From positions 59,990 to 123,989 of the forward strand of contig CAZJVY010000001.1 of the NCBI GenBank assembly GCA_964549395.1: DNA of 64,000 bases, written 5' to 3'. Position numbers and translations under genes: made by a program. This document shows positions 49,230 to 64,000 of this stretch, piece after piece (the first letter of the stretch is position 1; the number at the start of each line of letters is the position of its first letter). The notes beneath the pieces are model-generated. The model did no database searches, was not told where the DNA came from, and saw only the letters and a program-made list of their open reading frames with translations. The DNA comes from an uncultured Armatimonadia bacterium (lineage in GTDB: Bacteria > Armatimonadota > Zipacnadia > Zipacnadales > UBA11051).

Positions 49230-50654
49230 TTACTCGCGCTCAAAGCCGAGGCGCTGCAAGTGGCGCATGGCCTCCTGGGTTGTCATGCGTGTAATCTTCG
49301 CAGCACCGGCGGCGAGCAGTTCGGAGACCGTGCACAAGCGGAGGCCACGCTGACCAGCGCCGTCAATGATGAGCGGCAAGGCGTTGAAGCTCTCCATACT
49401 GCCCTGGTGCATGAGGACGATGCCGCCAGGCCGCAGGCCCTTAAGGGCATTAGCGGCGATGACCGACGGAGCAGGCTTGAGCCAGTCGTCAGCGTTGGTG
49501 GTCCACATAACCAGAGCGTGACCGGATACGGCGATGGCCTGGAGCCCCGGCTCGTTCAGTCTTCCCCCCGGAGGGCGGAAATAACGGGTGTTCACGCCCG
49601 TCAATCCGCCGAGGACGCGCTGACAGGTCGTAAGCTCGGCCAGCATTTGGGCGCTGTTGAGTTCATGGGCGCGGCGGTGGGAATACGAGTGGTTGGCTAT
49701 CTCATGTCCCTCGGCCACGATGCGGCGTACCAGCTCCGGGTACTCCTCTGCCTTCTCCGCTACGAGGAAGAAGGTGGCATGGACACCGCGATCCCGCAGG
49801 ACGGCGAGCATGAGGGGGGTAGTCAGAGGATGTGGACCATCGTCAATCGTGAGTGCGGCCATGCCGTGGCCGTCGTTGGTGCCCTCGAGAACGTCAATGC
49901 GTGCGCCGTTTGCCGCCGCCAACCGTGCCTGGGCCTCCGCGACATGTGCCTCCCAGTTGTCGAGCATGGGAGTGGTGTCGTAGACGGTTGGGGGTACCAT
50001 GCTGAGCAGATCGAGGCCGGCACAGCAGGCGTACTGGAGGTATGTCGGAGACAGCCTGACGAGGCCGAGGCCGGCCAGAGCGAGTGAGGAAGACCGGGGC
50101 TCGTCTGTAGCGCGGAAGAAATCCTGCCGCGTGGCATATGCCGAGAAGACCGGCAGGTGGTCGTAGTCATGGGTGCCATTAGCCGGCACAACGGCCCACA
50201 CGTCCACGGACTGCATCTGCGGGTCGAGTTGAAACGCGACTGACAGGGCAGTGACCGCGTCCTCCTGGAGGGCCTTGGCATCAAAGCGCCGGCCGTACTT
50301 GTCGCTTGCCTGGAGCTTGACGAGGCCCATCAGTTGGCCGTTGTAGGAGCCGACGGCTACCCTCATGATATCGTGGCGGAGGTTGACGGCCAGCAGCTCG
50401 CGGGCAAGTCGCCCTTCCCACTCGGGCGAGTAGCCTTTGATGATGCCGCCGTTGCCTTCCGTGAGGCTGCAGATTAGCTCCGGTGGCGGCTTGACTGCAG
50501 CGTGAGGGTAGAGCTGTGAAAGGCCCGTAGCATGGATGTGTGGTGCAATGTGGGACAGGGAGAGCAACGGATTGGTCGGGGCGGCGCTCTCCTCTGCATA
50601 GACCAACATGCCGACCAGAAAGACGGCGCACAATATGATGCAGACTATCTGCAC
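49230..50654 (-). CDS. Secreted polysaccharide deacetylase (CE4/NodB) with an unknown N-terminal domain
   Basis: LTIDDGP, HSYSH, YFRPPGG, IVLMH. The start is uncertain; GTG at 50654 gives a signal-peptide-like N-terminus. Confidence 0.85.
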   Translation of the reverse strand: MQIVCIILCAVFLVGMLVYAEESAAPTNPLLSLSHIAPHIHATGLSQLYPHAAVKPPPELICSLTEGNGGIIKGYSPEWEGRLARELLAVNLRHDIMRVAVGSYNGQLMGLVKLQASDKYGRRFDAKALQEDAVTALSVAFQLDPQMQSVDVWAVVPANGTHDYDHLPVFSAYATRQDFFRATDEPRSSSLALAGLGLVRLSPTYLQYACCAGLDLLSMVPPTVYDTTPMLDNWEAHVAEAQARLAAANGARIDVLEGTNDGHGMAALTIDDGPHPLTTPLMLAVLRDRGVHATFFLVAEKAEEYPELVRRIVAEGHEIANHSYSHRRAHELNSAQMLAELTTCQRVLGGLTGVNTRYFRPPGGRLNEPGLQAIAVSGHALVMWTTNADDWLKPAPSVIAANALKGLRPGGIVLMHQGSMESFNALPLIIDGAGQRGLRLCTVSELLAAGAAKITRMTTQEAMRHLQRLGFERE

Positions 50655-50759
50655 GCCGATCTGGTCTCTGGACGGCGGTAATGAAGTGGGTGATCGCCTC
50701 AATTGCTTCGTCGCTCGCTGCCCCGAAATGTGCGGTGTCTGAAGCTGATACTGCCTACA

Positions 50760-50788
50760 ATAATACGTCCTTTTCGTCGCGGTGACAA
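50760..50788 (-). promoter_or_regulatory. sigma70-type promoter for the deacetylase gene
   Basis: Minus strand TTGTCA-17 bp-TATTAT. Confidence 0.65.
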
Positions 50789-50902
50789 GTGCTGCTGCCG
50801 TGAATGGGAAGTTCATAGCGACGGTGGGGCAGCAAGGGATTGCGCAGGTGCCGCAGAAATGAAACCATTGCTGTGAGCAAGTTGGCTGGGAGGTGCTCAA
50901 GA

Positions 50903-51898
50903 TTGGACAAGTTGCGTTTCGGCATCATCGGAGCCGGCGGCATTGGCGGCAGCCATCTGCGGGTAATCGAGAAGCGTGACGACGCGGAGGTGGCTGTCGT
51001 TTGTGATACGTCCGAGGATGTGCGCGATAGGTTTGCGGCGGAGGGCTATGCGGTTACGGCGGAATGGTCGGAAGTGATCGCCGGCGACATTGATGCGGTA
51101 GTCGTGGCCCTGCCGCACTACCTGTATCCTGAGGTCGTTTCCGCCGCGCTTGCTGCGGGGAAGCACGTGCTACAGGAGAAGCCGTTCGCCCACAACCTGG
51201 CTGCCGCACGTCAGACCGTGACGGCGGCGGAACGGAGTGAGGCCGTGCTCATGGTCGGCGGGCAAAGCAAGTACCAGGCCGGCTTCCAGCGGGCGAAGGA
51301 GGTGGCCGAGACAGGCGTGCTGGGCGACGTCTTCATGATTCGCGGCGTCATCACCTATCGGTGGGGGAATGCCTTCGCCGGCAAGTGGTCGTGGCGAGGT
51401 CGTAGGGAGCTGTCCGGGGGGACAGCGATCATTGACTCGGGCTGGCATATCCTGGAGCTGATGAACTGGTTCAGCGGAGTCCCGCAGGCGGTCTATGCGA
51501 CCACGGGCCACGGCAACGCGCTGCCGGGTGACTATGATGTTGACGACCGCGCGGTGATGGCGATGGAGTATGAGAATGGCGCAATAGGCGTGGCGACCAT
51601 ATCGTTCATTTGTCTCCCTGGAGAGCGCACGCTCACACTTCACGGGACCGAGGGCTCGATGCAGATCAGCGACAACGAGGTGCGGCTGCACACCGGTCCG
51701 CAGAAGGATGCGGAGGTCATTACGTTGGCGGCAGCGGAGGACTCGCTGGGGCCGCAGATGGGCCGCTTCATCGAGCTTGTGCGGACCGGTGGCGACGGGA
51801 TGCCGGGCGTGTTGGCGGCGCTGGACGTGCAACGCGTTATCGAGGCGGCATACATGTCCGCCGCCGGCGGGAAGCGCGTGATGCTGGAGGAAGTGTGA
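50903..51898 (+). CDS. Gfo/Idh/MocA-family oxidoreductase
   Basis: GIIGAGGIG, HVLQEKP, GG..IDSGWH; TTG start after GGAGGT. Confidence 0.92.
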   Translation: MDKLRFGIIGAGGIGGSHLRVIEKRDDAEVAVVCDTSEDVRDRFAAEGYAVTAEWSEVIAGDIDAVVVALPHYLYPEVVSAALAAGKHVLQEKPFAHNLAAARQTVTAAERSEAVLMVGGQSKYQAGFQRAKEVAETGVLGDVFMIRGVITYRWGNAFAGKWSWRGRRELSGGTAIIDSGWHILELMNWFSGVPQAVYATTGHGNALPGDYDVDDRAVMAMEYENGAIGVATISFICLPGERTLTLHGTEGSMQISDNEVRLHTGPQKDAEVITLAAAEDSLGPQMGRFIELVRTGGDGMPGVLAALDVQRVIEAAYMSAAGGKRVMLEEV

Positions 51899-51934: not shown

Positions 51935-52999
51935 CTACATCGGCGTGAAATCGGTCGTGTCGTCTATCCGGGTCAGGGCCTCGGCAATCATCCTGGCTGC
52001 ATTCTCCAGGTCGCAAAGCGCAACTATCTCGCATGGGCCGTGCATGTAGCGGTTCGGGATGCTGACGAGTGCAGCCGCGACACCCGCGCGGTTGATCTGG
52101 ATCGCATTGGCGTCCGTGCCGGTTCCGCGCGGCTCCGGGTCGGTCTGATACGGCAGCTTGCGCGCCTCGGCTGACTTGACGAGGATGTCCCGCAGCGCCG
52201 GGTTGATGTTCGGGCCTCGTGCAATCGTGGGGCCCTTGCGGACGACAATCTTGCCCGTGCGCTTCTCGTCCACTCCCGGGTAATCGGTGGCATGGGTGAC
52301 GTCAACGGCGATGCCGGCGTGTGGGTCGATTCCGAAGGCGCTGGTCCGTGCGCCGCGCAGACCGAGTTCCTCCTGGACCGTTGACACGGCATATACGGCG
52401 CACTTGAGCTTGCTTTTCGGTATGAGGCGCAGTGCCTCCATCGCGACGAAGACGCCAACCTTGTCATCACATCCCGGGGCGGCTATCAGGTCCTGTTGAA
52501 GCGGGGTGTAGTGCAGGTCGAAGGTGATGGGATCGCCGATTTCGACGAGCCTCTCCGCAGCCGCTTTGTCCTTGGCGCCGATGTCCACCCACAGGTCCTC
52601 GACCTCGAGCTTCTCTTTGGCACGGTCCTCGGCGGTCAGGAGGTGGATGGGCTTGCGGCCGATCACGCCTGCAATGGGCTTCTTCGCGGTGTGGACGGTG
52701 ACACGCTGGCTGAGCAACACCTTGGCGTCAATGCCGCCGATGGCCGCGATATGGAGCATGCCCGAGTCGGCGATGTACTGGACCATCAAGCCGACCTGGT
52801 CCACGTGACCGGCCAACATGACGCGCACCGGTGCTGCGGCGTTGCGGACGGCGATTACGTTGCCGTGGACATCGGTGCGGACATCATCGGCGAATTCGGC
52901 GGCGTATGCACGGACGATGCGTTGTGCCGGCTGCTCGAAGCCGGAAGGGCACGGTGTCATGACAAGTTGCTTGAAGAACTCCAGTGATTTGTCGCGCAT
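51935..52999 (-). CDS. M42-family metalloaminopeptidase (TET-like)
   Basis: PSGFE, AGHVDQVG, DDKVG, TVQEE.GLRGA, DVTHA, TD, RYMH. Confidence 0.92.
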   Translation of the reverse strand: MRDKSLEFFKQLVMTPCPSGFEQPAQRIVRAYAAEFADDVRTDVHGNVIAVRNAAAPVRVMLAGHVDQVGLMVQYIADSGMLHIAAIGGIDAKVLLSQRVTVHTAKKPIAGVIGRKPIHLLTAEDRAKEKLEVEDLWVDIGAKDKAAAERLVEIGDPITFDLHYTPLQQDLIAAPGCDDKVGVFVAMEALRLIPKSKLKCAVYAVSTVQEELGLRGARTSAFGIDPHAGIAVDVTHATDYPGVDEKRTGKIVVRKGPTIARGPNINPALRDILVKSAEARKLPYQTDPEPRGTGTDANAIQINRAGVAAALVSIPNRYMHGPCEIVALCDLENAARMIAEALTRIDDTTDFTPM

Positions 53000-53049
53000 T
53001 GCGTTCCTCCAGGTGAGACGGGTATTGTGCTGCTATCCGAGACGGCCGG

Positions 53050-54162
53050 CTACTGCTTCGCTTCGACCTCGATGTCGTCGAAGTAGACCTTCCCAACGCC
53101 GCCGCTGCGCAGGTAGACTACGAAGCCGGTGTTGTCCTCCTTCGCGGTAAACTCCCAGGAGAATAGGGCCCAGTCGTCCGCCTTCTTGAGGCCGGGCATA
53201 TTGCTGTACTGGTCCTGCTTGCCGGTCGCCTTGTTCTGGGCGATGATGGATGCGTACCCGCGGTCGGCGTCGGTCTTGTAGTACCCGGACAACACATAGG
53301 TTCTGCCCGGGATGAGGTCAACGGCCTGGCCGCAGACGATATTGAGGGATCCGGCTATGCCGTCAATCATGAGGCACTTGCCAGAGCGGCCGCCATCCAC
53401 GACCTTTATGTCGGCCTTGGTATTGGCATCGGAACTCCAGGTGCTGGATGACCAGTTGGTTGGCGCTCCGTTCTTGTCTGCAAGCTCGAAATCACCGTTG
53501 GCCAGCAGCGGAGCGGTGGTGAACTCCATCTGCAGGGTGGCGGTGTTGAAGCTGGGTGAGGCGTCGCAAACGGAGACGAAGACGGTGTGGGGCGCTTTGG
53601 GTAGATCCCCGATTGTGATGATGAGGTCCAGGTGCTTGCCGTCCGCGCTCTGGTCAAGCTTGACAGCGCCGCCGCACGCCTTTGGCTCGCGCCCGTCAAT
53701 TGAGATGGACGCTCTGCCAGGATGGATCGGGTTCTTCCTGTCACCAAGCGTCAGCATGATCGTCTTGGGGGTCTGCGATAGGTGGCCGAGCTTGACGACG
53801 GTGTCCGCGACGGTCACAGCGGAGCCGTCCATGCTAACGGCCTCGAACACTGGCGGGTCCTCATCGGGCAACTGGAGCCACTTGGGCTTGTTAAGGAGTA
53901 TGACCGTGGAAGCGAGGGCGTCCTCAGGCGGCGAGAATGAGACGGCAGTGCCGGACTTGTCCACCTTGAGCTGCTTCCATTCGCCCTGTGAAGTGCGATA
54001 GATGGGGGAGTTGACGGTAGGCCCGCCACTGATGGTTATCTTGACAGGGACGTTGGAGGTGACTCTGATCGGCTGGAGCGTGAAGTCATCGCCCGCAAGC
54101 GGGAACTGCGGGATAATCATCAAACATGCGCCGCACACGAACATCAAAGCGGTAGTTCTCAT
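53050..54162 (-). CDS. Secreted Ig-like + CBM-like (galactose-binding fold) protein, paralog A
   Basis: Signal peptide; KPKWLQLPDEDPP; PLLANGDFE...W...TYVLSGYYK...W..FSWE...YFDD (CBM4/9/16-like pattern). Confidence 0.75.
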   Translation of the reverse strand: MRTTALMFVCGACLMIIPQFPLAGDDFTLQPIRVTSNVPVKITISGGPTVNSPIYRTSQGEWKQLKVDKSGTAVSFSPPEDALASTVILLNKPKWLQLPDEDPPVFEAVSMDGSAVTVADTVVKLGHLSQTPKTIMLTLGDRKNPIHPGRASISIDGREPKACGGAVKLDQSADGKHLDLIITIGDLPKAPHTVFVSVCDASPSFNTATLQMEFTTAPLLANGDFELADKNGAPTNWSSSTWSSDANTKADIKVVDGGRSGKCLMIDGIAGSLNIVCGQAVDLIPGRTYVLSGYYKTDADRGYASIIAQNKATGKQDQYSNMPGLKKADDWALFSWEFTAKEDNTGFVVYLRSGGVGKVYFDDIEVEAKQ

Positions 54163-54218
54163 GAGCACTCATCCTCCGTATCACGGCCGGTTAGGGGCGT
54201 CTGCGCCGTGCAGCGGCG

Positions 54219-55322
54219 CTATTCCTTGAGTTCGAGCTTGACGTCATCGAAGTACACTTTGCCCTGCCCGCCGCTGCGCAGGTACAGTGTATAGGTCGGC
54301 GCACCCGCTTTGGGGACTATCTCCCAGGAGAACGGCGTCCACTCTTCGGCATGCTGCAGGGGCGGCATGCTATCGTACTGCTTGTCCTTGCCACCGCTGG
54401 CGATGAGAGAAGCGTGGCCGAGATTGCCCTCGTTCTTGTAGTAGCCGGAGAGCACATAGGTCTTCCCCTCCTCCAGCTCGACCTGCTGTCCCGCCACCAG
54501 ATTGAGGGGAGGCGAGATGCCCTGTATCATCAGGGCCTTGCCACTGCGCCCGCCGTCAACAATCTTGGCCTCGAACTTGGTCTCCGGCTTCTGATCCCAG
54601 GCGCCAACGACCCACTCCAGGGGGCCGCCGTTCTTGTCGGCTTGCTCGAATTCGCCGTTCTTCAGCAGAGGCGCGGTGCTGAACAGTAGCGTGAGGGCGG
54701 TGGCATTGGCTTCCGGCGAGGCGTCGGCGAGTGTCACGAGGACGCGGTAGGTGTCGAGGGGCAAATCGCCGGGCGCAATGATGATGTCGGCATGCTTGCC
54801 ATCCTTGCTCTGATCCGTCTTCACCATGCAGCCGAGTTCGGCTGCAGGTCGGCCATTGACGCTGACCGCAAGCCGACTGCAGGCCAGCGGGTTAGTCCTA
54901 TCGGCAACGGTAATCATGATGTTGCGCGGGGTGTCCTTGAAGCGGCCGAGGGCGACCTCGGTTCCGGTGGCATAGGCCGTGCCGTCAATGCTGATGGTCT
55001 CAACTACCGGCGCATCGGCGTCAGGCAGCGCCAGCCACTTGGGTTTGCGGAGTATGATGACGGTGGAGCCGAGAGTGTCCTGAGGCAAGGAGAAAGAAAC
55101 GGCAGTACCGGCTTTTGACGTCTTGAGGACCTTCCACTGGCCCTTTGCATCAAGGTACATCGGATTGTTGATGTCGTCTCCCGCAGGCATCCGGACTTCC
55201 AGAGCGGCGTTTGCCACGACGGCTATGGTCTGAAGCTGGTAGTCATCAGCCGCTGCCAATGTAGGCGATGCCATGGCGGCGGCAAGCGCCAGAACGAGAC
55301 ACATGTTGAGTATGATCCTCAT
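54219..55322 (-). CDS. Secreted Ig-like + CBM-like protein, paralog B
   Basis: Same architecture and motifs as paralog A over the full length. Confidence 0.75.
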   Translation of the reverse strand: MRIILNMCLVLALAAAMASPTLAAADDYQLQTIAVVANAALEVRMPAGDDINNPMYLDAKGQWKVLKTSKAGTAVSFSLPQDTLGSTVIILRKPKWLALPDADAPVVETISIDGTAYATGTEVALGRFKDTPRNIMITVADRTNPLACSRLAVSVNGRPAAELGCMVKTDQSKDGKHADIIIAPGDLPLDTYRVLVTLADASPEANATALTLLFSTAPLLKNGEFEQADKNGGPLEWVVGAWDQKPETKFEAKIVDGGRSGKALMIQGISPPLNLVAGQQVELEEGKTYVLSGYYKNEGNLGHASLIASGGKDKQYDSMPPLQHAEEWTPFSWEIVPKAGAPTYTLYLRSGGQGKVYFDDVKLELKE

Positions 55323-55335
55323 GCGCGTTCTCTCC

Positions 55336-56454
55336 CTACTGCTTCATCTCCAGCTTTACATCATCAAAGAACACAGTGCCCTTGGACGTGCTGCGCAGGT
55401 ATATGATGAAGTTCTTGTTGTCCTCCGCGGCAGTAATCTCCCACGAGAACGCCGTCCAGTCGGCGGCGGGCGGCAGGGATGAAGTGTTCGTGTACTGGGC
55501 CTTGGCACCGCCGACGCCCTTCCCGATAAGCGACGTATAGCCGCCGGTGCAGTCGTTCTTGTAATAGCCGGAAAAGACATAGGTGCGTCCGGGCACCAGG
55601 TCCACGTCCTGGCCGACGACCATGTTAAGACGGCCGCCGATGCCCACGAACTTCAGGGCGTTGCCGGTGCGGCCTGCGCCCTTGGCGACCGTCAGTTCGT
55701 ACTCGGTGGGGTCTCCCGAGTGCCAGGAGCCGAGAGACCAGTACTGGGGCTTTCCGTCGTCCTTGAGTGCCTCAAAGCCCCCATCGCGCAGCAGCGGGGC
55801 TGTGCTGAATGTAAGCTGCGCCGTCAGGAGGTTGCGGCGGGGAGAGGCGTCAGGCACCTGCAGAAGCACTTGGTGTTTGTCCTCGGGAAGGGCGCCCGGC
55901 GCGATGATGATGTCTACATGTTTGCCGTCGCGGCTCTGATCAACCTTCACAGCGCCTCCGTAGGAAGCCGGCGGCTTTCCGTTGATGAAGACACTGACGC
56001 GGTCGGCCGCAATGGGATTTGTGGCGTCGGCGACAGTGAACATGATGTTCGAGGGAGTCTGGCTAAGGTTGCCAGCGTTCATGTCTTCCGTCAGCTCCAC
56101 GGCCTGCGTGCCGATGCTGGCGGCCTGTATGAGCGGCGAATCCGTATCCGGCAAGGTGAGCCAATCCGGCTTGTTGAGGATGACAACCGTGCTGCCTACT
56201 GCATCGGCGGGGACGGAAAAGGAAATGCCGCCGCCGGCCGTGGCTACCTGCAAGGGCTTCCACTCACCGGCGGCGTTGACATACATCGGCCGGCTGAGCT
56301 TCTCCTTTGCGGGCACCGTTATGTCCACAGGCGCATTGGCGGTTATCTTGAATGCCTCGAAGGTGAAGTCAGCCCTTGCGCAAGGGCAATAGGTGGCTGC
56401 GGCAAAGGCGGCGACCACGAAGCAGACTACGGCAATCACACCTAGAGGACGCAT
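55336..56454 (-). CDS. Secreted Ig-like + CBM-like protein, paralog C
   Basis: Same architecture; ATG at 56454 with a GGAG RBS gives a signal peptide. Confidence 0.75.
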   Translation of the reverse strand: MRPLGVIAVVCFVVAAFAAATYCPCARADFTFEAFKITANAPVDITVPAKEKLSRPMYVNAAGEWKPLQVATAGGGISFSVPADAVGSTVVILNKPDWLTLPDTDSPLIQAASIGTQAVELTEDMNAGNLSQTPSNIMFTVADATNPIAADRVSVFINGKPPASYGGAVKVDQSRDGKHVDIIIAPGALPEDKHQVLLQVPDASPRRNLLTAQLTFSTAPLLRDGGFEALKDDGKPQYWSLGSWHSGDPTEYELTVAKGAGRTGNALKFVGIGGRLNMVVGQDVDLVPGRTYVFSGYYKNDCTGGYTSLIGKGVGGAKAQYTNTSSLPPAADWTAFSWEITAAEDNKNFIIYLRSTSKGTVFFDDVKLEMKQ

Positions 56455-56597
56455 CGGATCGGTCTCCTTCCCTCGGCTGGACCGGCAAGACAAACTGGCC
56501 GCGCCGAAGCGCTCAGCAGACATTTCGATGGGTGGCGCGTTGATACCTGCCAAAAGCAGCGGCTGGGACGAAAAACGGTGGGAACGACAGGTGAGCA

Positions 56598-58946
56598 TCA
56601 GCAGCGCAATCGCAGCGCGCAGAGCAGGAGCAGAGCACATGCCAGAACGCCACAGAGCAGGGCGGCTCCGGCAACACCGAACAGCGGCACGAGCAGCGCA
56701 CCGGCCAGCACAGCGCCGGAGCTGGCACCGAGCAGGTCAGCAGCGTACATCGCGGCGGCGACAGGCCCCCGGTTCTCCATCTGCCCGCCCGCCTCGGTCG
56801 CCAGCGGGAACTGGACACCGACCAGGAGACCAAGGAATAGTGACACGAAGAAGAAGCCGACTGTCAGCGACCAGGTGGTCTCGCCGGGCATGAGAACGCC
56901 AACGCCCTGGAGCAGCGGAGTGAAAACGAAGGCTGTTGCGGCCAGGACGCCGAGAGCCACGCACAAGTGCACGAGAGCGGCTCGTGCGCCGGGGTTACGA
57001 GCCACCAGGCGGCCCGCAAGCAGGCCGCCGGCCGCCAGCCCGACCATGAAAGCGCCGCTGAGGACGCCGATGAGGCTGTAAATGTGGCCGACGTACACCT
57101 GGAAGCCGTACAGGACGCCCAACTGCAGGACCATACCGATGAAGCCGGTGCCCGCGATTGCGATTGGCACAGCGAAGCGGCGCGCGCATCGAGAGACGCC
57201 GGCGAGGGCGACCAACAGGAGGCTGAAGGCAAAAGTCACGCCGAGTGCGAGTTGCCAGGAGATGCCGGCCGCCCATTCCAGCGCCCTAGCTCCGAGCGGA
57301 TGGAATTGGCGCATCGCGTATACCTGATTGTAGAAGTAGGCGATGGGGCGCAAGTCGGTATTGAGCGGCGAGCGCGGGAAGGCGTCGAGCTGTTGCCGCA
57401 CAAAGGCTATGTTCATGGGCTCCAGATGGTCGTAGATGACCGATTCCCAGAACGGGGCGCTGACGCCACGCTGGTGGAGGCGACGCAGTATCTCGTCGGG
57501 GTCCTCCGTGAAATACGCACTGTCCGGGCCTACAACGGCATAGAGGCTGTAGGTGGGCATGAGCACGGTGCAGTAGTTAGGAGCGACCTCGGCTGCGTCG
57601 AGGAGCGTGGTATCGAGGCGGAGTAGGTCGGCGCTGTAGTAGGTCTGAGTGCCGGGCAGTTGAAGACCGATGACCGTAGCAGGTGAGGCGGCTGCTACCT
57701 GCTGCAGGCAGTCACGGGTGTAGTAGCGGTTGAGCAGCGCAGTAAGCGGGGACGGAAGGGCAATGATGGCCGCATCCCACTTCGGGAGGTCGCCGCTATG
57801 GGCGCGACTGCGCAGATAGGAACGGAGGTCCTGTGGCCAGATGTGGGCCCTGTCAACAGGAATGGCCCCACGGTAGTCCTCATACACCCGCAGCAGGCCG
57901 GGATCAAGTTCGAAGTAGTCGAGAGACTCGATGTCGTACTTCAGGGCTTCGGCGACTGCACCCGTACCCAGGCCGCCGACCACCAGCACGCGACGCGGAT
58001 GCGGATGCTGGAGCATGGTGAAATGGACGAGGAATTGAGTATCGGGCATCGTTTCAGTATATGCAGCAGGTTCTCCATTGATGAAGAAGACCTTACCAGC
58101 TTCGCCATGTTTCGCTACGACGATGTTGCTTTGCAGTGTGTCCACATTGGCTATCAACTCATACCCGTGCCAGCGCACCGCGAGGGTGTAGTCATCGAGA
58201 AGGACCGCACCGTGCAGTAGCACCGGAGCAAGCAGGAGGATGGCGATGGCTGCGACACGCAGGGAGATGCGTTGTCTGGGTGGACTGAGCGCCCCACAGA
58301 CCGCAAGTGTCGCGAGGAGAGACAGCAAGCCGGCCGCCGTGACAGCCGTGTACGGGTCCAGGACGGTGGTGAGCAGATAGGCGGCGGCCGTGCCACCGAC
58401 GAGGTGCCCGGCCGCATCTATGGCATAGGACCTGGCGATAGGGGAAGGTCCGGCGCGCAGGCGGGCGTAGAGGGAGATTGCAGAACCGAACTGGGCCTCG
58501 ACAACGAATGCGGCAGGAAATGTGCCCACGACTGTGAGGAGGAGTACCTGCAGCAGACCGAACATCTCGCCGCGTCGCGCGGCCAGCATCACTGGTAGCT
58601 TTGGGAAGAGCTCGGGGCTGATGCGGATGAGGCCGATGGCGGCCAGCGAGGCCAGGAGCGAAAGACAGGTCAGAAGCAGCAGCCGAACCGCAGTCACGGC
58701 AGTGGCGCGGTCGGCCTTCGCCTGACGGCCCGCCCACCAGCAGCCGAGAGCGCCGCTGAAGAGCCACACGCCGAGGATGATGCCGACCGTCAACTCGCTG
58801 CCGGAACAGACGATCAGAAGCTGGCGGATGAGGACGACCTGTATGATGCCGCAGCAGAGGCCGATACAGAAGATGGCAAGATTTATCGGCCAGACGGCAG
58901 GGCTGCTGTCCTCGAACGGCGCATCCGTGGTCGGTTGCGGTGGCAT
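56598..58946 (-). CDS. Membrane-fused spermidine-synthase-like (class I SAM-fold) protein
   Basis: N- and C-terminal multi-TM blocks flanking VLVVGGLGTG..E..K....D.FELDP and the N.D.RP motif. Confidence 0.8.
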   Translation of the reverse strand: MPPQPTTDAPFEDSSPAVWPINLAIFCIGLCCGIIQVVLIRQLLIVCSGSELTVGIILGVWLFSGALGCWWAGRQAKADRATAVTAVRLLLLTCLSLLASLAAIGLIRISPELFPKLPVMLAARRGEMFGLLQVLLLTVVGTFPAAFVVEAQFGSAISLYARLRAGPSPIARSYAIDAAGHLVGGTAAAYLLTTVLDPYTAVTAAGLLSLLATLAVCGALSPPRQRISLRVAAIAILLLAPVLLHGAVLLDDYTLAVRWHGYELIANVDTLQSNIVVAKHGEAGKVFFINGEPAAYTETMPDTQFLVHFTMLQHPHPRRVLVVGGLGTGAVAEALKYDIESLDYFELDPGLLRVYEDYRGAIPVDRAHIWPQDLRSYLRSRAHSGDLPKWDAAIIALPSPLTALLNRYYTRDCLQQVAAASPATVIGLQLPGTQTYYSADLLRLDTTLLDAAEVAPNYCTVLMPTYSLYAVVGPDSAYFTEDPDEILRRLHQRGVSAPFWESVIYDHLEPMNIAFVRQQLDAFPRSPLNTDLRPIAYFYNQVYAMRQFHPLGARALEWAAGISWQLALGVTFAFSLLLVALAGVSRCARRFAVPIAIAGTGFIGMVLQLGVLYGFQVYVGHIYSLIGVLSGAFMVGLAAGGLLAGRLVARNPGARAALVHLCVALGVLAATAFVFTPLLQGVGVLMPGETTWSLTVGFFFVSLFLGLLVGVQFPLATEAGGQMENRGPVAAAMYAADLLGASSGAVLAGALLVPLFGVAGAALLCGVLACALLLLCALRLRC

Positions 58947-58991
58947 CTTACACCAACAGTAACGGCTCGGACCGGCATTCATTACGGAAAA

Positions 58992-59016
58992 CGGGGCCGC
59001 GGCATCCGCGGCCCCG
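58992..59016 (-). terminator. Intrinsic terminator downstream of tRNA-Ala
   Basis: CGGGGCCGCGG/CCGCGGCCCCG 11-bp stem followed by TTTT on the minus strand. Confidence 0.8.
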
Positions 59017-59024
59017 GCATTGTC

Positions 59025-59100
59025 TGGTGGACGGAAAGGGGTTCGAACCCTCGACCTCATCCGTGCGAGGGATGCGCTCTCCCAACTGAGCTATCCGCCC
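59025..59100 (-). tRNA. tRNA-Ala (anticodon CGC)
   Basis: Full cloverleaf: GGGCGGA/TCCGTCC acceptor with the G3:U70 alanine identity pair, D arm GCTC/GAGC, anticodon loop CTCGCAC, TTCGAAC T-loop, discriminator A, encoded CCA. Confidence 0.97.
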
Positions 59101-59111
59101 ACATCAGTGCC

Positions 59112-59140
59112 ATTTTAGCGGGAAACCGACATTCAGTCAA
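59112..59140 (-). promoter_or_regulatory. sigma70 promoter of tRNA-Ala
   Basis: Minus strand TTGACT-17 bp-TAAAAT. Confidence 0.85.
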
Positions 59141-59185
59141 CCCGGCCGGCCGTGGCGTGCCGGATACTGCGGGAACAACGGACGA

Positions 59186-60289
59186 CTACTCCTTGAGCTC
59201 TAACTGGACGTCGTCGTAGTAGGTTGTACCTTTGCCCGCGCTGCGCAGATAGAGGTATTTCCGGTTTGCGCCGGGCTTCATCGTGAACTCCCACCGGAAA
59301 GGCGTCCAGTCGCCGGCAGGAGTCAATAGATGGTGCTCGTACTGGATGTCCTGGCCGCCCTGCAGCGTGTAGAGCGTGACCCCCGCGTTTGTCGCGTCGC
59401 TCCTGTAGTAGCCGGAGATGACGTAGGTCCTACCGTCCTCCAGTGGCGGTTCCTGGCGGGCAAGCAGGGAGAGATTGCCTGCTATCCCGATGATGCGTAG
59501 TGCGCGGCCTGTACGTCCCGCGCCCTCAGCGGATGAGAACTCGTATTCCGTGTCAGACGAGAGCGACCAGGCATCGGCGTACCAGTGCTTGGCCGTACCG
59601 TTCGCCGCCACCTCCTCGAAATCGCCGTTCTTCAGCAGGGGGCTTGTGTCGAAGGCGAGACGCAGTGCAAGGGTGTTGGATGTGGGTGCGGCATCCGGCA
59701 CGAGCACCTCAACCACATGCTTGTCACGGGCCAGATTGCCGAGGCTGATGGTGATGTCGGCGTGTCGGCCGTCCTTGCTCCGGCTTACCCTGAATGAGCC
59801 GCCGCGTGCCTCGGGCGCTCTGTCGTCAATCAGCGCTGCGGCACGGCCAACCGCGATGGGATTGGCTTCATCTGCCACTGTGACAACGATGCTGGTCGGA
59901 ATTCCCGCGACATGGCCGATGTCGGTCGTTCCAGAAACAGGTTCAACGGCCTTGCCGCCAACACTGAGAGCGCTGACAACGGGCGGATCGGCATCCGGGA
60001 GCGTAAGCCACTGTGGCCTGTCGAGGATGATTACGCACTTGCCCAGCGCATCATCGGGCACAGAGAATGCAATGCCGGCGGCATCCTGGCGTACTGCCAG
60101 GGGCTGCCAGTTGCCCTGCGTGTCCAGGTATGCCGGCTGATGAACGGTTTCCCCGTTCAGGATTTGAACCTGCATCGGCGCCCGGCATGTGAGGTTGAGG
60201 GACCGGAGGGAGTAATCGTCCGCGGCCCACGAAAGGCTTGACGCCATCAGCGCCCATATAACGGCCGGCCTCATGCAGAATCGCTTCAT
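59186..60289 (-). CDS. Secreted Ig-like + CBM-like protein, paralog D
   Basis: Same architecture (RPQWLTLPDADPP; PLLKNGDFE; TYVISGYY; WTPFRWE; YYDDVQLELKE). Confidence 0.75.
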   Translation of the reverse strand: MKRFCMRPAVIWALMASSLSWAADDYSLRSLNLTCRAPMQVQILNGETVHQPAYLDTQGNWQPLAVRQDAAGIAFSVPDDALGKCVIILDRPQWLTLPDADPPVVSALSVGGKAVEPVSGTTDIGHVAGIPTSIVVTVADEANPIAVGRAAALIDDRAPEARGGSFRVSRSKDGRHADITISLGNLARDKHVVEVLVPDAAPTSNTLALRLAFDTSPLLKNGDFEEVAANGTAKHWYADAWSLSSDTEYEFSSAEGAGRTGRALRIIGIAGNLSLLARQEPPLEDGRTYVISGYYRSDATNAGVTLYTLQGGQDIQYEHHLLTPAGDWTPFRWEFTMKPGANRKYLYLRSAGKGTTYYDDVQLELKE

Positions 60290-60374
60290 GACAGTCACCA
60301 TCCTCCGGCCCGGCTGCGGAACGCGATTCGCCGGTGTCTGAATTCGTCCCATGTCGAACGGTCGGCAGATGAGA

Positions 60375-62258
60375 CTACCCGGCCGGCTCAGGCTCCGGCA
60401 TCGGCACAAACCGCTGCAGACATTCGGCGTGCCGCTGGCGCAATCCCTCAAAGACACTTTCTCTGGAGTATATCAGGAGCATCTCGACGGGATTTGCGGC
60501 GGCGTTGAACTTCACCGTCGAATCCTTAATATCGGCCGGGATGTCGGGCAGGCCGCCGGGGAAGCGCATCCGCACAACCCCTGCCGCCTTCATGAAGGAC
60601 GGCAGCCGCACGCGTACTGCTGCGGCCGGTGTCTCGGCGCGAATGAACTGCTCGGGCGTGGACTGGAAGTCCTTGTTGACGAGAATGACCACCATAGCCT
60701 TGTCGCCGCACAGGATGCAACTGCTCAGATAGTTGCCGCCGTCCACAAGCGGCTCGCCGACGGGAATACCGATGGAGGTGAGGGGCAGCACCTGTTGGAG
60801 GATGCCGTTGACCTCGCCGACGGCGTTCCACATCTTGGGATGCTTGAGCAGGCCGTTAGTGCCGTGGGCCGGGTACCATTGCAGCGACTTGGCGCCGGAC
60901 GCCAGTGCCGTGTACACCTCAATGCGCATCTCGTCGGGATCGAACTCACGCTCTTTGTTAGCGCAGTAGCCGTCATTCAGGTAGTAGAAGGGCCTGGGAC
61001 GGCTCGCCGCCTGGGTGTTCAGGACGTGGTCCTGCGTCGGCTCGATTATCCCGCGTCCGAGCGCATAGGCGTGGGCGCAGATGTAGTCGGGTATCTGCCC
61101 GTAGACGTAGAGGTTGCGCGGGTAGCCGCCGTGGTCTATCTGAAGATAGGTGGGGTGCGCCAGGTCGAATATGCGGCAGAACTGATTGGCCCGCTCCACA
61201 TCGCGTGAGATGGAGAGCCTCGGCAGGTCGGTGTTATGGTAACGACCGTCAGGCTCATCCTCCAGGAAATAGGCCCACAGTGCTTCCTGTTCCTTGATTG
61301 GCGCGACTTGCTCCACGTTGTCGTAATAGACAGGCTCTCGCTTCTTCTCGCCGGGCTTGAGGCTGCGGCCGTAGATATATGCGCCGCCGAGGCCGTACTT
61401 GCTGAGCATCGGATATGAAGTGGCGGGCACTGCCGTGAAGGCGATGGTCGCATCGAACAGGTGATTGGCGTATTGCTGAAGCTCGCTCTCATGGTTGTTG
61501 CCCATGATCCCCAGCGGGGCAGGTGAGGGCAGGGCCCGTATCAGTACTGCCCGCAGATCGTCGGCTGTGCCGATGGCGACGGCGTGGAAGCTACCCTTCT
61601 GCCAGGAGTCTTGCAGCTTGACCTGTGCATAGGTGTATCCGGAGAAGACGGTATGGATATCTGCTTCCGCACTCCGACCATCAAGCTCCACACGCAAGAT
61701 GTCCATATCAGCACCTGCCTGGCTGCGGGTATATATGTGCAGCTCGTCCAGATTCTCGCCGATGCCGACGTACTCAAGCGTGAAAGACGGTTCGGACATG
61801 CTCACCACAGCGGTGAGTGGTTCCTGACCGGCCGCGGTGAGTGACACTTCATGTTGCGCCGCCTCGCAGGCCGTAGAATCGAGGCGCAGTATCACCTCTG
61901 CGATGCCGCCTGCAGGTACGGGATTGGGATAGACGCGGTACCATGCCACCAGGTCGTTTTCAACGGGAATGTACTGATCCCTCACGTCCGGCTGCAGGAA
62001 GCTCTCGTCGGTTTTCCATACCTTGCCGATGGATTTGCCGTCCAGTGCGATGTCGGTGATCGCCAAGGGAGCATTCGTCGTGTTCTTGAGGTACACGAAG
62101 ATGCTGCCTGCGTACTCAACCGCATCGGGTACGTAGTAGGCGGTATAGATGGCCCCCGTCCCACTTGAGACTGCCACACAGGAGCTTACGGAGAGCACGC
62201 CCACCACAGCCACCAGTTGGACAATGAACTTCCTTCCCTTATGCGACACGCCAAACAC
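60375..62258 (-). CDS. Secreted/lipoprotein with N-terminal beta-rich domains and a putative glycoside-hydrolase-like barrel, paralog E
   Basis: Signal with VSSC lipobox-like site; WAYFLEDEPDG, PDYICAHAY, GAKSLQWY motifs; paralog of the next gene. Confidence 0.6.
   Translation of the reverse strand: MFGVSHKGRKFIVQLVAVVGVLSVSSCVAVSSGTGAIYTAYYVPDAVEYAGSIFVYLKNTTNAPLAITDIALDGKSIGKVWKTDESFLQPDVRDQYIPVENDLVAWYRVYPNPVPAGGIAEVILRLDSTACEAAQHEVSLTAAGQEPLTAVVSMSEPSFTLEYVGIGENLDELHIYTRSQAGADMDILRVELDGRSAEADIHTVFSGYTYAQVKLQDSWQKGSFHAVAIGTADDLRAVLIRALPSPAPLGIMGNNHESELQQYANHLFDATIAFTAVPATSYPMLSKYGLGGAYIYGRSLKPGEKKREPVYYDNVEQVAPIKEQEALWAYFLEDEPDGRYHNTDLPRLSISRDVERANQFCRIFDLAHPTYLQIDHGGYPRNLYVYGQIPDYICAHAYALGRGIIEPTQDHVLNTQAASRPRPFYYLNDGYCANKEREFDPDEMRIEVYTALASGAKSLQWYPAHGTNGLLKHPKMWNAVGEVNGILQQVLPLTSIGIPVGEPLVDGGNYLSSCILCGDKAMVVILVNKDFQSTPEQFIRAETPAAAVRVRLPSFMKAAGVVRMRFPGGLPDIPADIKDSTVKFNAAANPVEMLLIYSRESVFEGLRQRHAECLQRFVPMPEPEPAG
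61672..61754. repeat. 83-bp exact direct repeat, copy 1 (copy 2 at 63603-63685)
   Basis: Identical run CTCCGACC...TCCAGATT inside the near-identical N-terminal halves of paralogs E and F. Confidence 0.9.
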
Positions 62259-62299
62259 CTACCTTTGAATATGTTGTAGCGACTGGCACGACCATGCAT

Positions 62300-64000
62300 T
62301 CAGGCATTGTCATCAGGTTCGGGCATGGGCACAAAGCGCTGCAGGCAGCCTTCCCGCGTGTTGCGCATCTCCTGCAGAACCGCGTCATCGGTATATATGA
62401 CCAGAATCTTGCCCGCCTGAACCTGCGTAGTGAACGCGACGGTTGAACTGGCGATATCTGCCTCAATCTGTACCGTTTCTTCTGGGAAGTTCGCCTCTGC
62501 TACGCCTACGGCCTGCATGAAACTCGGTAGCCGGACGCGGACATTGGCGGTCGCCGGGTTGAGTGTGAAGCTCTGGGCATCGGCAGTGAAGTCCTGGTTG
62601 ACCAGCACTACAACCACGGCATTGTCACCGCACAGGATGGCGCTGCCGAGCAGGTTGCCCCCGTCAATGCGTGGGGCACCCAGCGGCACTCCGACCGACA
62701 CCAGCGGCAGCACCTGATGCAGCACCCCATTCATGGCGCCGACTGCATTCCACATCTTGGGATGCTTAAGGAGGCCGCTGTTACCGTGGGCCGGATACCA
62801 CTGCAATGACTTGGCCCCCTCAGCGAGGGCGGTATGAACCTCCAGGCGCATCTCGAGGGGGTCAAAGTCGCGGGTGTCCTGACGGGCGCAGTAGCCACAG
62901 TTGAGATAGTAGAACGGGTGCGGACGCGCGGCGTTGCGGGTGTGGAAGACATGGTCCTGGGTTGCGGTGATAACCTTGGGGCCGCCGAGCGCGTACGCAT
63001 GGGTGCAGATGTAGTCAGGTATCTGCCCGTAGATGTAGAGGTTGCGCGGGTAGCCGCCGTGGTCTATCTGTAGATAAGTCGGGTGCGCCGGGTCGAATAT
63101 GCGGCAGAATTGGTTGGCGCGCTCCACATCACGGGATATAGAGTGACGATGGAGAACCGTGCGGTGGTATCGGCCATCCGGCTCGTCTTCAAGGAAGTAC
63201 GCCCAGAGGGAGGGCAGGTCCTTGATCTGCTCCAGCGCCTCAGGTTGATCGTAGTAGACCGGTTCCTTCTTCTTCTCTTCCTCCGGCTTCAGGTAGCGGC
63301 GGTAGATGTATGCTCCGCGCAGACCGAACTTCTCCAGCCGCTCGTAGGTCTCGGGCGAGGCCGGGCCGAACGCGATGTTGGCGTCGAACAGATGGGTTCG
63401 GTACTCTTCCAGAACGCGCTCCTGCGTGTTGCCCATGATGGCCAGCGGCGCAGGTGATGGCAGCGCCCGTATGAGCACTGCCCGCAGATCGTCGGCTGTC
63501 CCAATAGCGACGGCGTGGAAGCTGCCCTTCTGCCAAGGGTTTTGCAGCTTGACCTGTGCATAGGTATATCCGGAGAAGACAGTGTGGATATCAGCTTCCG
63601 CGCTCCGACCATCAAGCTCCACACGCAAGATGTCCATATCAGCACCTGCCTGGCTGCGGGTATATATGTGCAGCTCGTCCAGATTGGCGCCGATGCCGAC
63701 GTATTCAACAGTGAAAGATGGCTCGGACATGCTCACCACGGCGGTGAGTGATTCCTGACCGGCCGCGGTGAGTGATACCTCATGCTGCGCTACCTCACAA
63801 GCCGTGGAATCGAGCCGCAGTATCACCTCCGCAATGCCGCCTGCAGGTATGGGATTGGGGTAGACGCGGTACCATGCCACCAGACTATTCTCGACGCAGA
63901 TGTACTGATCTCTCACGTCCGGCAACAGGAAGCTCTCGTCGGTCTTCCATATCTTGCCGATGGATTTGTCGTCGAGTGCGATGTCGGTAATCGTCAAAGG
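62300..64000 (-). CDS. Putative glycoside-hydrolase-like protein, paralog F (5'-truncated at window edge)
   Basis: Colinear with paralog E along its whole length; frame open to the window edge. Confidence 0.6.
   Translation of the reverse strand, partial: PLTITDIALDDKSIGKIWKTDESFLLPDVRDQYICVENSLVAWYRVYPNPIPAGGIAEVILRLDSTACEVAQHEVSLTAAGQESLTAVVSMSEPSFTVEYVGIGANLDELHIYTRSQAGADMDILRVELDGRSAEADIHTVFSGYTYAQVKLQNPWQKGSFHAVAIGTADDLRAVLIRALPSPAPLAIMGNTQERVLEEYRTHLFDANIAFGPASPETYERLEKFGLRGAYIYRRYLKPEEEKKKEPVYYDQPEALEQIKDLPSLWAYFLEDEPDGRYHRTVLHRHSISRDVERANQFCRIFDPAHPTYLQIDHGGYPRNLYIYGQIPDYICTHAYALGGPKVITATQDHVFHTRNAARPHPFYYLNCGYCARQDTRDFDPLEMRLEVHTALAEGAKSLQWYPAHGNSGLLKHPKMWNAVGAMNGVLHQVLPLVSVGVPLGAPRIDGGNLLGSAILCGDNAVVVVLVNQDFTADAQSFTLNPATANVRVRLPSFMQAVGVAEANFPEETVQIEADIASSTVAFTTQVQAGKILVIYTDDAVLQEMRNTREGCLQRFVPMPEPDDNA
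63603..63685. repeat. 83-bp exact direct repeat, copy 2
   Basis: Identical to 61672-61754. Confidence 0.9.

Follow-up and report, generated by a model that had tools for sequence, protein, structure and literature searches.

A clade-specific Armatimonadota gene cluster encoding exported glycosidase-like and putative carbohydrate-binding proteins with a possible role in polysaccharide use

Results

Layout of the cluster and its internal tRNA gene

A 64,000-nt stretch of contig CAZJVY010000001.1 from an uncultured Armatimonadia bacterium (the window, in whose positions all coordinates are given) ends in a gene cluster at 51935-64000, which an original prediction made from the sequence had proposed to be an undescribed extracellular glycan-foraging system. 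All eight protein genes found there in the list of open reading frames (ORFs) lie on the minus strand, as predicted, and a tRNA gene that had been missed lies among them. In the order of transcription the cluster reads F, E, D, tRNA-Ala(CGC), SpeEmem, C, B, A and M42 (Table 1), where E and F are glycoside hydrolase (GH)-like proteins, A to D are proteins with a carbohydrate-binding module (CBM)-like domain, SpeEmem is a membrane protein with an S-adenosylmethionine (SAM)-type fold and M42 is a peptidase. The listed ORF starts were too far 5′ for several genes, and likely extents are given for E, D, SpeEmem and C. The full length of F (628 aa) was taken from protein P0005 on a 99%-identical contig, and the sequence 5′ of F was read from the 99%-identical contig L022.

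Table 1. Features of the cluster in the order of transcription, followed by two neighbouring genes.
Feature	Position	Strand	Description
F	62300..64000 (cut by window end)	-	Exported E-family paralogue, GH-like, clan GH-A-related; type I signal peptide
E	60375..62249	-	Exported; two immunoglobulin (Ig)-like domains, (β/α)8 barrel, C-terminal β-sandwich; VSSC lipobox
D	59186..60289	-	Exported Ig-Ig-CBM_4_9-like protein; variable member of the A-D set; upstream of the tRNA
tRNA-Ala(CGC)	59025..59100	-	Rfam 65 bits; anticodon by ARAGORN
SpeEmem	56598..58946	-	782 aa; ∼7 transmembrane (TM) helices, SpeE-like SAM-fold domain, ∼7 TM helices
C	55336..56454	-	Exported Ig-Ig-CBM_4_9-like protein
B	54219..55322	-	Exported Ig-Ig-CBM_4_9-like protein; copy used for the AlphaFold2 (AF2) model
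A	53050..54162	-	Exported Ig-Ig-CBM_4_9-like protein
M42-family metallo-aminopeptidase	51935..52999	-	PF05343; no signal peptide
GFO/IDH/MocA oxidoreductase	50840..51898	+	Context only; neighbour in some related loci
Polysaccharide deacetylase (CE4 domain; PDA)	49230..50900	-	Context only; conserved neighbour

The tRNA gene is preceded by a promoter-like site at 59140-59112 (TTGACT-17-TAAAAT, 10/12 matches), of a kind that was no commoner in the region than in shuffled sequence, and is followed by a terminator-like hairpin at 59016-58992 (11 bp, all G+C, with a T run). Because this tRNA with its promoter-like and terminator-like sites is internal to the cluster, the stretch is not one plain operon, and we conclude that the tRNA probably divides it into at least two transcription blocks, F-E-D and SpeEmem-C-B-A-M42, within each of which the intergenic gaps are 13-83 bp (50 bp between A and M42). 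A structured RNA 5′ of the SpeEmem gene was considered and ruled out, the hairpin being the terminator-like element of the tRNA gene.

The same tRNA occupies this position in most related loci, where it was observed directly 5′ of SpeEmem or of the first CBM-like gene (L001, L003, L005, L013, L020, L030, L032 and L033). What varies in the cluster, namely the copy number of E and gene D, lies on the upstream side of this tRNA, where one relative also has lyase and pilin-like genes. Just 5′ of the E-family genes in L022 (6611-9846) and L001 (170-3185) are genes for pilin-like proteins (N_methyl + SBP_bac_10/DUF1559) and a GntR/FCD regulator, both thus lying upstream of F; a distant E homologue in L018 also adjoins a pilin-like gene.

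E and F are members of a large family with a distant relationship to clan GH-A

Both E and F, which are paralogous, carry signal peptides, E probably as a lipoprotein to judge from its lipobox, and neither matched any Pfam or NCBIfam model. An AF2 model of E built from 38 sequences (pLDDT 91.2, pTM 0.90) consists of the signal peptide, two Ig-like β-sandwiches, a (β/α)8 barrel with eight β/α units between residues ∼265 and 491, and a C-terminal β-sandwich. When this model was compared with the Protein Data Bank (PDB) by Foldseek, a GH66 dextranase was the top match (E 3e-14), followed by GH2, GH13, GH35, GH51 and GH157 structures. Profile searches against PDB sequences found no member of the E family itself. 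A narrow E-clade profile gave nothing significant there (best match GH42, E 0.2), and the link became significant only with a broad E-superfamily profile, which matched GH42 (E 4.5e-6 and 4.7e-4) and GH158 (E 1.4e-4), with GH5 at E ∼0.1. GH42, GH158 and GH5 are families of clan GH-A. From these profile matches the E/F family appears to be distantly related to the TIM-barrel glycosidases of clan GH-A, and the earlier description of the two proteins as secreted and GH-like was borne out by their signal peptides, by the TIM barrel with β-sandwiches and by this significant link.

A word-indexed search yielded 46 close relatives of E, of which the named ones are proteins called 'hypothetical' from metagenome-assembled genomes of Armatimonadota or unclassified bacteria. 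Among 185,579 species genomes there were 13 E loci, 11 from Armatimonadota (including Armatimonadia and one 'Candidatus Zipacnadia'), one from an unclassified bacterium and one from Victivallaceae. An exhaustive profile search for the wider family returned many more cluster representatives (1,580 at E≤1e-3, 673 at E≤1e-10 and 243 at E≤1e-30), and by this measure the E clade of the window would be the tip of a large family. No Pfam model matched the catalytic region in 59 diverse members of this superfamily, and 10 members traced by exact-sequence lookup were named 'hypothetical protein' or unnamed in their sources. Some members bear accessory modules (Laminin_G_3, F5/8 type C, NPCBM, BNR_4, PA14, CBM_4_9, CBM_6 and Dockerin_1), which are typical accessories of carbohydrate-active enzymes (CAZymes).

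Comparison of E with F revealed that the N-terminal ∼250 aa, which span the two Ig-like domains and are encoded within 61500-64000, are ∼93% identical, and that protein identity is ∼55-78% over most of the remaining length. Third-codon-position identity is 0.72-0.85 in the N-terminal part and 0.35-0.55 over most of the rest. Because third positions, too, are raised in identity, the likeness of the N-termini looks like the outcome of recent gene conversion between the tandem copies, which best explains it, and not of selection for docking.

The putative active site of E and F has an Asp-Glu pair and lacks the β7 nucleophile

In the AF2 model, residue D331 ends strand β4 (residues 324-331) and opens the motif D331-E332-P333-D334. 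The GH158 motif 'LGNES' was aligned over the E-family 'lmDEP', so that D331 stands where the Asn would be and E332 corresponds to the acid/base Glu; at the end of β4, the E-family Glu, followed by Pro, aligns with the Asn-Glu acid/base motif of clan GH-A. Likewise, Y395 on β6 aligns with the Tyr of the GH42 'DAYP' motif. The Glu of the GH42 'LMEQ' motif, which we take to be the nucleophile at β7, aligns with a non-acidic column (L/Y/P in the E superfamily and N425 in the window clade). Conservation, counted over 148 distant E-superfamily members, was near-complete at D331 (130/135), E332 (128/135), P333 (132/135) and D334 (122/133), as well as at D388 (143/146), Y395 (141/146), R434 (133/144) and E440 (133/146), the last of which lies just after β7 and off the canonical nucleophile position. 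In the N-terminal Ig-like part of the E family, W103 and P108 are conserved.

These alignments suggest that the acid/base Glu (E332) has been kept and the β7 nucleophile lost in the E family. Retaining glycosidases that act on 2-acetamido sugars with the assistance of the substrate, such as those of GH20 and GH123, are marked by a pair of neighbouring Asp and Glu residues and have no nucleophile of their own. Since E combines such a pair with a lost β7 nucleophile, substrate-assisted cleavage of a 2-acetamido sugar linkage appears the most likely chemistry, and E and F are probably glycosidases directed at N-acetylhexosamine (HexNAc). The earlier suggestion of HexNAc-containing targets fits the same two features, from which we likewise infer it. 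The likeness to GH20 and GH123 lies in the motif only, namely the near-invariant Asp-Glu pair at the end of β4 and the missing β7 nucleophile: GH20, GH84, GH123 and GH18 were absent from the Foldseek matches listed for E and from its PDB profile matches, and E had no Pfam match to them.

A to D resemble the accessory module of heparinase II/III-like lyases

The four paralogous proteins A to D (∼367-372 aa, pairwise identity 40-49%) all have a signal peptide. Their C-terminal 150 aa gave CBM_4_9 (PF02018) scores above the gathering score of 25.9 only for A (26.7) and D (30.8), and their ∼190 N-terminal residues form two Ig-like β-sandwiches. An AF2 model of B (pLDDT 88.9) contains these two sandwiches and a jelly roll, which Foldseek matched to CBM70 (4d0q; target TM-score 0.73), CBM4-2 (0.62-0.69), CBM16 (0.68-0.76), CBM61 (0.63-0.64) and also CBM22; CBM70 is hyaluronan-binding. 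The prediction of four CBM-only secreted proteins therefore stands as regards secretion and, by AF2 and Foldseek, the CBM-type domain, but the proteins are not CBM-only, having two N-terminal Ig-like domains.

Relatives of A to D were collected by scanning metagenomes with a family profile, then by tblastn, and then examined with Pfam. In two loci (L047 and L051), proteins of 989 aa that contain DUF4962 and Hepar_II_III_C domains end in an A-D-type module of 300 aa. This module corresponds to A-D residues 62-367, that is, part of the first Ig-like domain followed by the second and the CBM, and comparison of the A-D family with the L047 C-terminus by hhalign left little doubt of the relationship (probability 99.96, E 9e-39). 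In L021 and L037, lyase-like genes are directly followed by stand-alone copies of the A-D type, L001 has a Hepar_II_III_C gene 5′ of its E genes, and A-D homologues elsewhere are also found beside an MFS sugar transporter. The substrates of lyases with this (α/α)n plus β-sheet fold are glycosaminoglycans, alginate or gellan (PMC11848413).

By this homology, A to D are free-standing copies of the accessory module of heparinase II/III-like lyases. Because the module is fused to lyases, a glycan-binding role is favoured and a special docking role is disfavoured for most of the N-terminal region of A to D, which, judging from fold and fusion, presumably bind a polymer without acting on it catalytically. 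The predicted mature N-termini of A to D and their homologues are variable (D, A, E or Q), and none begins with His.

SpeEmem is a polytopic protein with a SpeE-like domain but without spermidine synthase residues

SpeEmem matched Spermine_synth (PF01564) with 34 bits against a cut-off of 22.9 and SpeE structures in the PDB at down to E 1e-9. By hydropathy it has ∼7 helices, 310 soluble residues and another ∼7 helices, the helix count being a prediction in which TM5 is weakly hydrophobic. The membrane SAM-fold protein of the original prediction was thereby recovered as a polytopic protein with a Spermine_synth domain. In SpeEmem, GLGTG replaces the GxG(D/E)G of solved aminopropyltransferases, the 12 aligned clade orthologues being in agreement, with T, V, R or A at the acidic position among orthologues, and 'ALPSP', which in the clade orthologues reads LP(S/P)P, is aligned with the 'DLTDP' of 7xif (the D-x-x-D-P motif). 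Because the GxG(D/E)G position is non-acidic and D-x-x-D-P is missing, a true spermidine synthase was ruled out on both motifs despite the SpeE-type fold. Conserved among the orthologues are E346, D348 and D373, which are putative SAM-binding positions.

Counting K and R in the 12 orthologues gave a mean of 11.2 in the loops assigned to the cytoplasm vs 2.4 in the short loops assigned to the periplasm, and by this positive-inside rule the SAM-fold domain is predicted to lie in the periplasm, which is odd given that SAM is a metabolite of the cytoplasm. SpeEmem is, from its fold, possibly a methyltransferase. The closest described counterpart in outline is the fungal methyltransferase NHMT, a 7TM protein lacking the acidic residue of GxG(D/E)G that is required for decarboxylated SAM, which methylates the N-terminal histidine of secreted lytic polysaccharide monooxygenases (PMC10349129).

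The orthologues of SpeEmem fall into 13 clusters at ≥52% identity, and all the neighbourhoods seen have the same syntenic arrangement. The neighbours of one distant homologue include GT2, PMT_2 and epimerase genes. Other distant relatives (P0249-P0258) are fusions of ∼1,300 aa that combine Fer4_5, FMN_bind and SpeE-like domains and that one source names membrane-bound spermidine synthase / Rnf-like. A functional study of membrane-bound SpeE-like proteins was not found in the literature.

Linkage of the E and A-D families is confined to one syntenic clade

The order E (1-3 copies), tRNA-Ala, SpeEmem, two or three CBM-like genes and M42 recurs in at least six contigs (L001/L004/L026, L003, L005, L009, L013 and L020) in addition to the window, and the flanks of the cluster are conserved in this clade as well, with rnhB, lepB, rplS, trmD and rimM on one side and the PDA gene, an HD-domain gene and glyS on the other. 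Among the loci seen, the E and A-D families are linked only in this one Armatimonadota clade and are apart elsewhere. E genes have no CBM-like, SpeEmem or M42 gene within 10 kb in L006, L007, L010/L017, L012, L016, L018 and L019, and CBM-like genes occur without E in L021, L037, L040, L047, L049, L051 and L054. The check on co-occurrence that accompanied the original prediction thus gave a divided answer: the families are linked in a syntenic clade, but the flanks are conserved there too and the families are apart elsewhere. The proposal of a distinct modular system found no support in view of this restriction to one clade and of the tRNA that splits F-E-D from the rest.

The M42 peptidase was correctly predicted, with a full-length match to PF05343 (289.5 bits, profile positions 1-292 of 292). 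It reached no NCBIfam equivalog cut-off, and it is presumed cytoplasmic since its sequence has no signal peptide. Two loci, L032 and L033, lack both E and SpeEmem but have retained the tRNA-Ala, a single CBM-like gene, M42 and the PDA gene, the HD-domain gene being seen only in L032. Given this gene content, the tightest pair in the cluster is that of the A-type CBM gene and M42. Wherever M42 was found in related loci, the A-type CBM gene directly preceded it, even where E and SpeEmem were missing; the loci with this pairing are the window, L027, L028, L031, L032, L033 and L050.

A comparison of the N-terminal modules of E and F with those of A to D by hhalign detected no homology (probability 4.5%), and a docking module shared by the two families was ruled out on this result. 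The earlier proposal that the binders dock onto the enzymes via their N-terminal modules is disfavoured by this lack of detectable homology, by the signs of gene conversion between E and F, and by the finding that most of the N-terminal region of A to D, from residue 62, is also present in the lyases.

Homologues of E elsewhere lie among catabolic genes

Outside the syntenic clade, homologues of E have rich neighbourhoods. In L017/L010 these comprise a GH2+CBM60 protein, a sulfatase with SGSH_C, a DUF6785 membrane protein, two SIS_2 proteins, a BadF/G-type ATPase, a GHMP kinase and a transaldolase; in L006, LacI, a sulfatase, DegT, GNAT and Amidohydro_1; in L007, two SIS_2 proteins, BadF/G, a GlmA-like/GH42M protein, an esterase and a lambda-carrageenase-like propeller; and in L012, SIS_2, an esterase and a sulfatase. 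Among distant members, one has an ABC sugar-binding protein and a pilin-like protein nearby and another a DUF4838 protein with CBM9. We conclude that these contexts are catabolic, for sulfated, acetylated and/or amino-sugar glycans. No direct link between E and the GH42M/GlmA-like protein of L007 was detected by hhalign. A membrane protein of ∼650 aa follows the E homologue, in the place of SpeEmem, in L017 (11998-13932) and L010 (11941-13950), and the L017 copy bears DUF6785/DUF6784; that this DUF6785 protein is of the SpeEmem family was ruled out, as hhalign found nothing.

Discussion

Proposed role of the cluster

We favour, with modest confidence, the interpretation that this is a clade-specific Armatimonadota cluster whose exported products act on an extracellular or periplasmic complex polysaccharide. 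A glycan-degrading role is argued for because homologues of E adjoin sulfatases, GH2+CBM60 proteins and sugar kinases and because homologues of A to D adjoin or are fused to lyases. The substrate would probably be acidic and/or amino-sugar-containing, perhaps glycosaminoglycan-like or sulfated. E and F, from their large clan GH-A-derived family, would be the exported catalytic parts and may hydrolyse a 2-acetamido sugar linkage by the substrate-assisted route, while A to D, by the evidence of fold and fusion, would be exported, non-catalytic binders of the polymer. SpeEmem would contribute a SAM-fold domain predicted to be periplasmic, possibly as a methyltransferase, and M42 would be a conserved cytoplasmic neighbour without a demonstrated link to the other products. 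Nothing indicates a docking-based complex.

Several observations weigh against this interpretation. The Foldseek TM-scores of E are modest (0.40-0.46), the CBM_4_9 scores of B (15.6) and C (17.4) fall below the Pfam gathering score of 25.9, and the near-invariant E440 could act as the nucleophile from a displaced position, in which case the argument for HexNAc would fall away. Sulfatase, lyase and transporter genes are absent from the cluster in the window, and relatives share its gene order along with the housekeeping flanks, so its linkage may reflect vertical inheritance rather than joint function. The E, A-D and SpeEmem families are known from sequence and models alone. The stretch was present only in DNA metagenomes, from freshwater and freshwater sediment, and no RNA run was found to contain the E gene.

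Alternative explanations

The fixed chromosomal place of the cluster between housekeeping genes in every syntenic locus, its conserved neighbour encoding a CE4 deacetylase and its lack of a transporter or catabolic enzyme would suit a self-directed role, in which the cluster would serve to remodel the envelope or exopolysaccharide of the cell itself, such as a partly deacetylated HexNAc polymer that E and F trim, A to D bind, the deacetylase modifies and SpeEmem acts on during export. The distant SpeEmem homologue among GT2, PMT_2 and epimerase genes is also in keeping with such a role. However, homologues of E elsewhere stand beside LacI, sulfatases, sugar kinases/isomerases and an ABC sugar-binding protein, homologues of A to D keep company with an MFS sugar transporter and with degradative lyases, the region upstream encodes a GntR/FCD regulator, and the copy number varies (1-3 E and 1-4 CBM genes) in a manner typical of substrate-facing catabolic genes, and we regard a self-directed role as rather unlikely. 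We give about as little credence to the absence of any joint system, by which synteny would simply be inherited, E and F would be ordinary secreted glycosidases, and the A-type CBM gene with M42, as well as SpeEmem, would be separate units. Such a collection of units is what the E loci without CBM-like, SpeEmem or M42 genes, the CBM-like loci without E, the retention of the tRNA, CBM-like gene, M42 and PDA gene in L032 and L033 without E and SpeEmem, and the splitting of the cluster by a tRNA with a promoter-like site and a terminator-like hairpin would lead one to expect, but it sits poorly with the short gaps inside each block, with the carbohydrate-type folds of the parts, all of which are exported or sit in the membrane, and with the precedent for functional pairing set by CBM_4_9 fusions in the E superfamily.

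The remaining two explanations assign the cluster to a more specialised machinery. SpeEmem could be an extracytoplasmic SAM-dependent methyltransferase of the secreted proteins A to C or of the glycan that they bind, and thus a bacterial counterpart of NHMT. It shares with NHMT an outline of seven TM helices plus a SpeE-like domain and a non-acidic residue, Thr in SpeEmem, in GxG(D/E)G (PMC10349129). Its domain is predicted to be periplasmic, its putative SAM-binding residues E346, D348 and D373 are conserved, and its gene is directly 5′ of CBM-like genes in every examined locus of the 13 orthologue clusters. However, no supply of SAM is known in the bacterial periplasm; moreover, the mature N-termini of A to D are not conserved and none starts with His, SpeEmem is missing in L032 and L033, where the CBM-like gene and M42 remain, and the topology comes from the positive-inside rule only and the resemblance to NHMT is one of outline. 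We therefore consider this modification system improbable. Improbable to a still greater degree is the model in which A to D dock on E and F via their N-terminal modules to form an extracellular complex unlike polysaccharide utilization loci (PULs) and cellulosomes. The adjacency of the E/F and A-D genes on the same strand in one clade, the conserved N-terminal region common to A to D and the near-identity of the E and F N-terminal domains would all be accommodated by docking, yet the N-terminal modules of the two families have no detectable homology, third-position identity in E and F points to gene conversion, A-D residues 62-215 are the Ig-like region of heparinase-like lyases, the families do not occur together outside one clade, and the window proteins have no cohesin-like or dockerin-like match.

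Relation to known systems

With the GH42 β-galactosidases and GH158 of clan GH-A, E has in common the (β/α)8 barrel with flanking β-sandwiches and a significant profile match, but it differs in having Asp instead of Asn before the acid/base Glu, a non-acidic residue at the β7 nucleophile position and two N-terminal Ig-like domains in its conserved core, and in lacking a Pfam, NCBIfam or PDB member. Residues 62-367 of A to D are homologous to modules of heparinase II/III-type lyases (the PL12/15/17/21/33/39 fold group; PMC11848413), but in the window the module is free-standing, in four copies, beside SpeEmem and M42 and without an adjacent lyase. The cluster resembles CAZyme gene clusters and PULs outside Bacteroidota in its co-located exported GH-like enzymes and carbohydrate-binding proteins and its nearby GntR-type regulator, and differs from them in its lack of SusC/D and of an ABC or MFS sugar transporter, its internal tRNA gene and its fixed housekeeping position. 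As the original prediction had noted, Pfam and NCBIfam revealed no SusC/D, ABC binding protein, cohesin or dockerin in the eight proteins, so that both the SusC/SusD pair of the Bacteroidota-type PUL and the cohesin/dockerin pair of the cellulosome are missing; one distant E-superfamily member has a weak Dockerin_1 match (E 6.8e-4). Both SpeEmem and fungal NHMT (PMC10349129) are polytopic, have a SpeE-like SAM fold without the acidic residue for decarboxylated SAM and are associated with secreted carbohydrate-active proteins, but SpeEmem is bacterial, has a second block of ∼7 TM helices after the domain and has candidate substrates without an N-terminal His.

The new elements here are an enzyme family, large and so far unnamed, that derives from GH-A and has an unusual arrangement at its putative active site, free-standing modules of lyase type in several copies, and a SpeE-like membrane protein without spermidine synthase residues. 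Activity of E and F, if shown, would probably define a new glycoside hydrolase family and annotate many metagenomic genes, since at least 1,580 cluster representatives are without a Pfam or NCBIfam model, a solved structure or a functional name; the Asp-Glu pair and missing nucleophile provide a concrete hypothesis that is cheap to test. A to D are an example of how an accessory module of lyases can come to stand alone, as presumed binders encoded in several copies, and SpeEmem is a member of a widespread, unstudied group often annotated as spermidine synthase, whose defining residues are absent in SpeEmem. Armatimonadota are poorly cultured, and a functional handle on their carbohydrate use would be valuable. 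We regard it as unlikely, although worth stating, that two bolder proposals are jointly true: that E and F form a new GH family, a nucleophile-less GH-A offshoot that acts by substrate assistance on HexNAc-containing, possibly sulfated glycans, and that SpeEmem is the first bacterial extracytoplasmic SAM-fold modifying enzyme, fed by its own TM domain and acting on the secreted CBM proteins or their bound glycan.

Neighbouring genes

The deacetylase and GFO/IDH/MocA ORFs next to the cluster overlap head to head by ∼60 bp, and their starts are probably further in. As listed, the deacetylase ORF has a hydrophobic stretch before the CE4 domain, and its true start is probably later; the deacetylase is 460-485 aa long in relatives.

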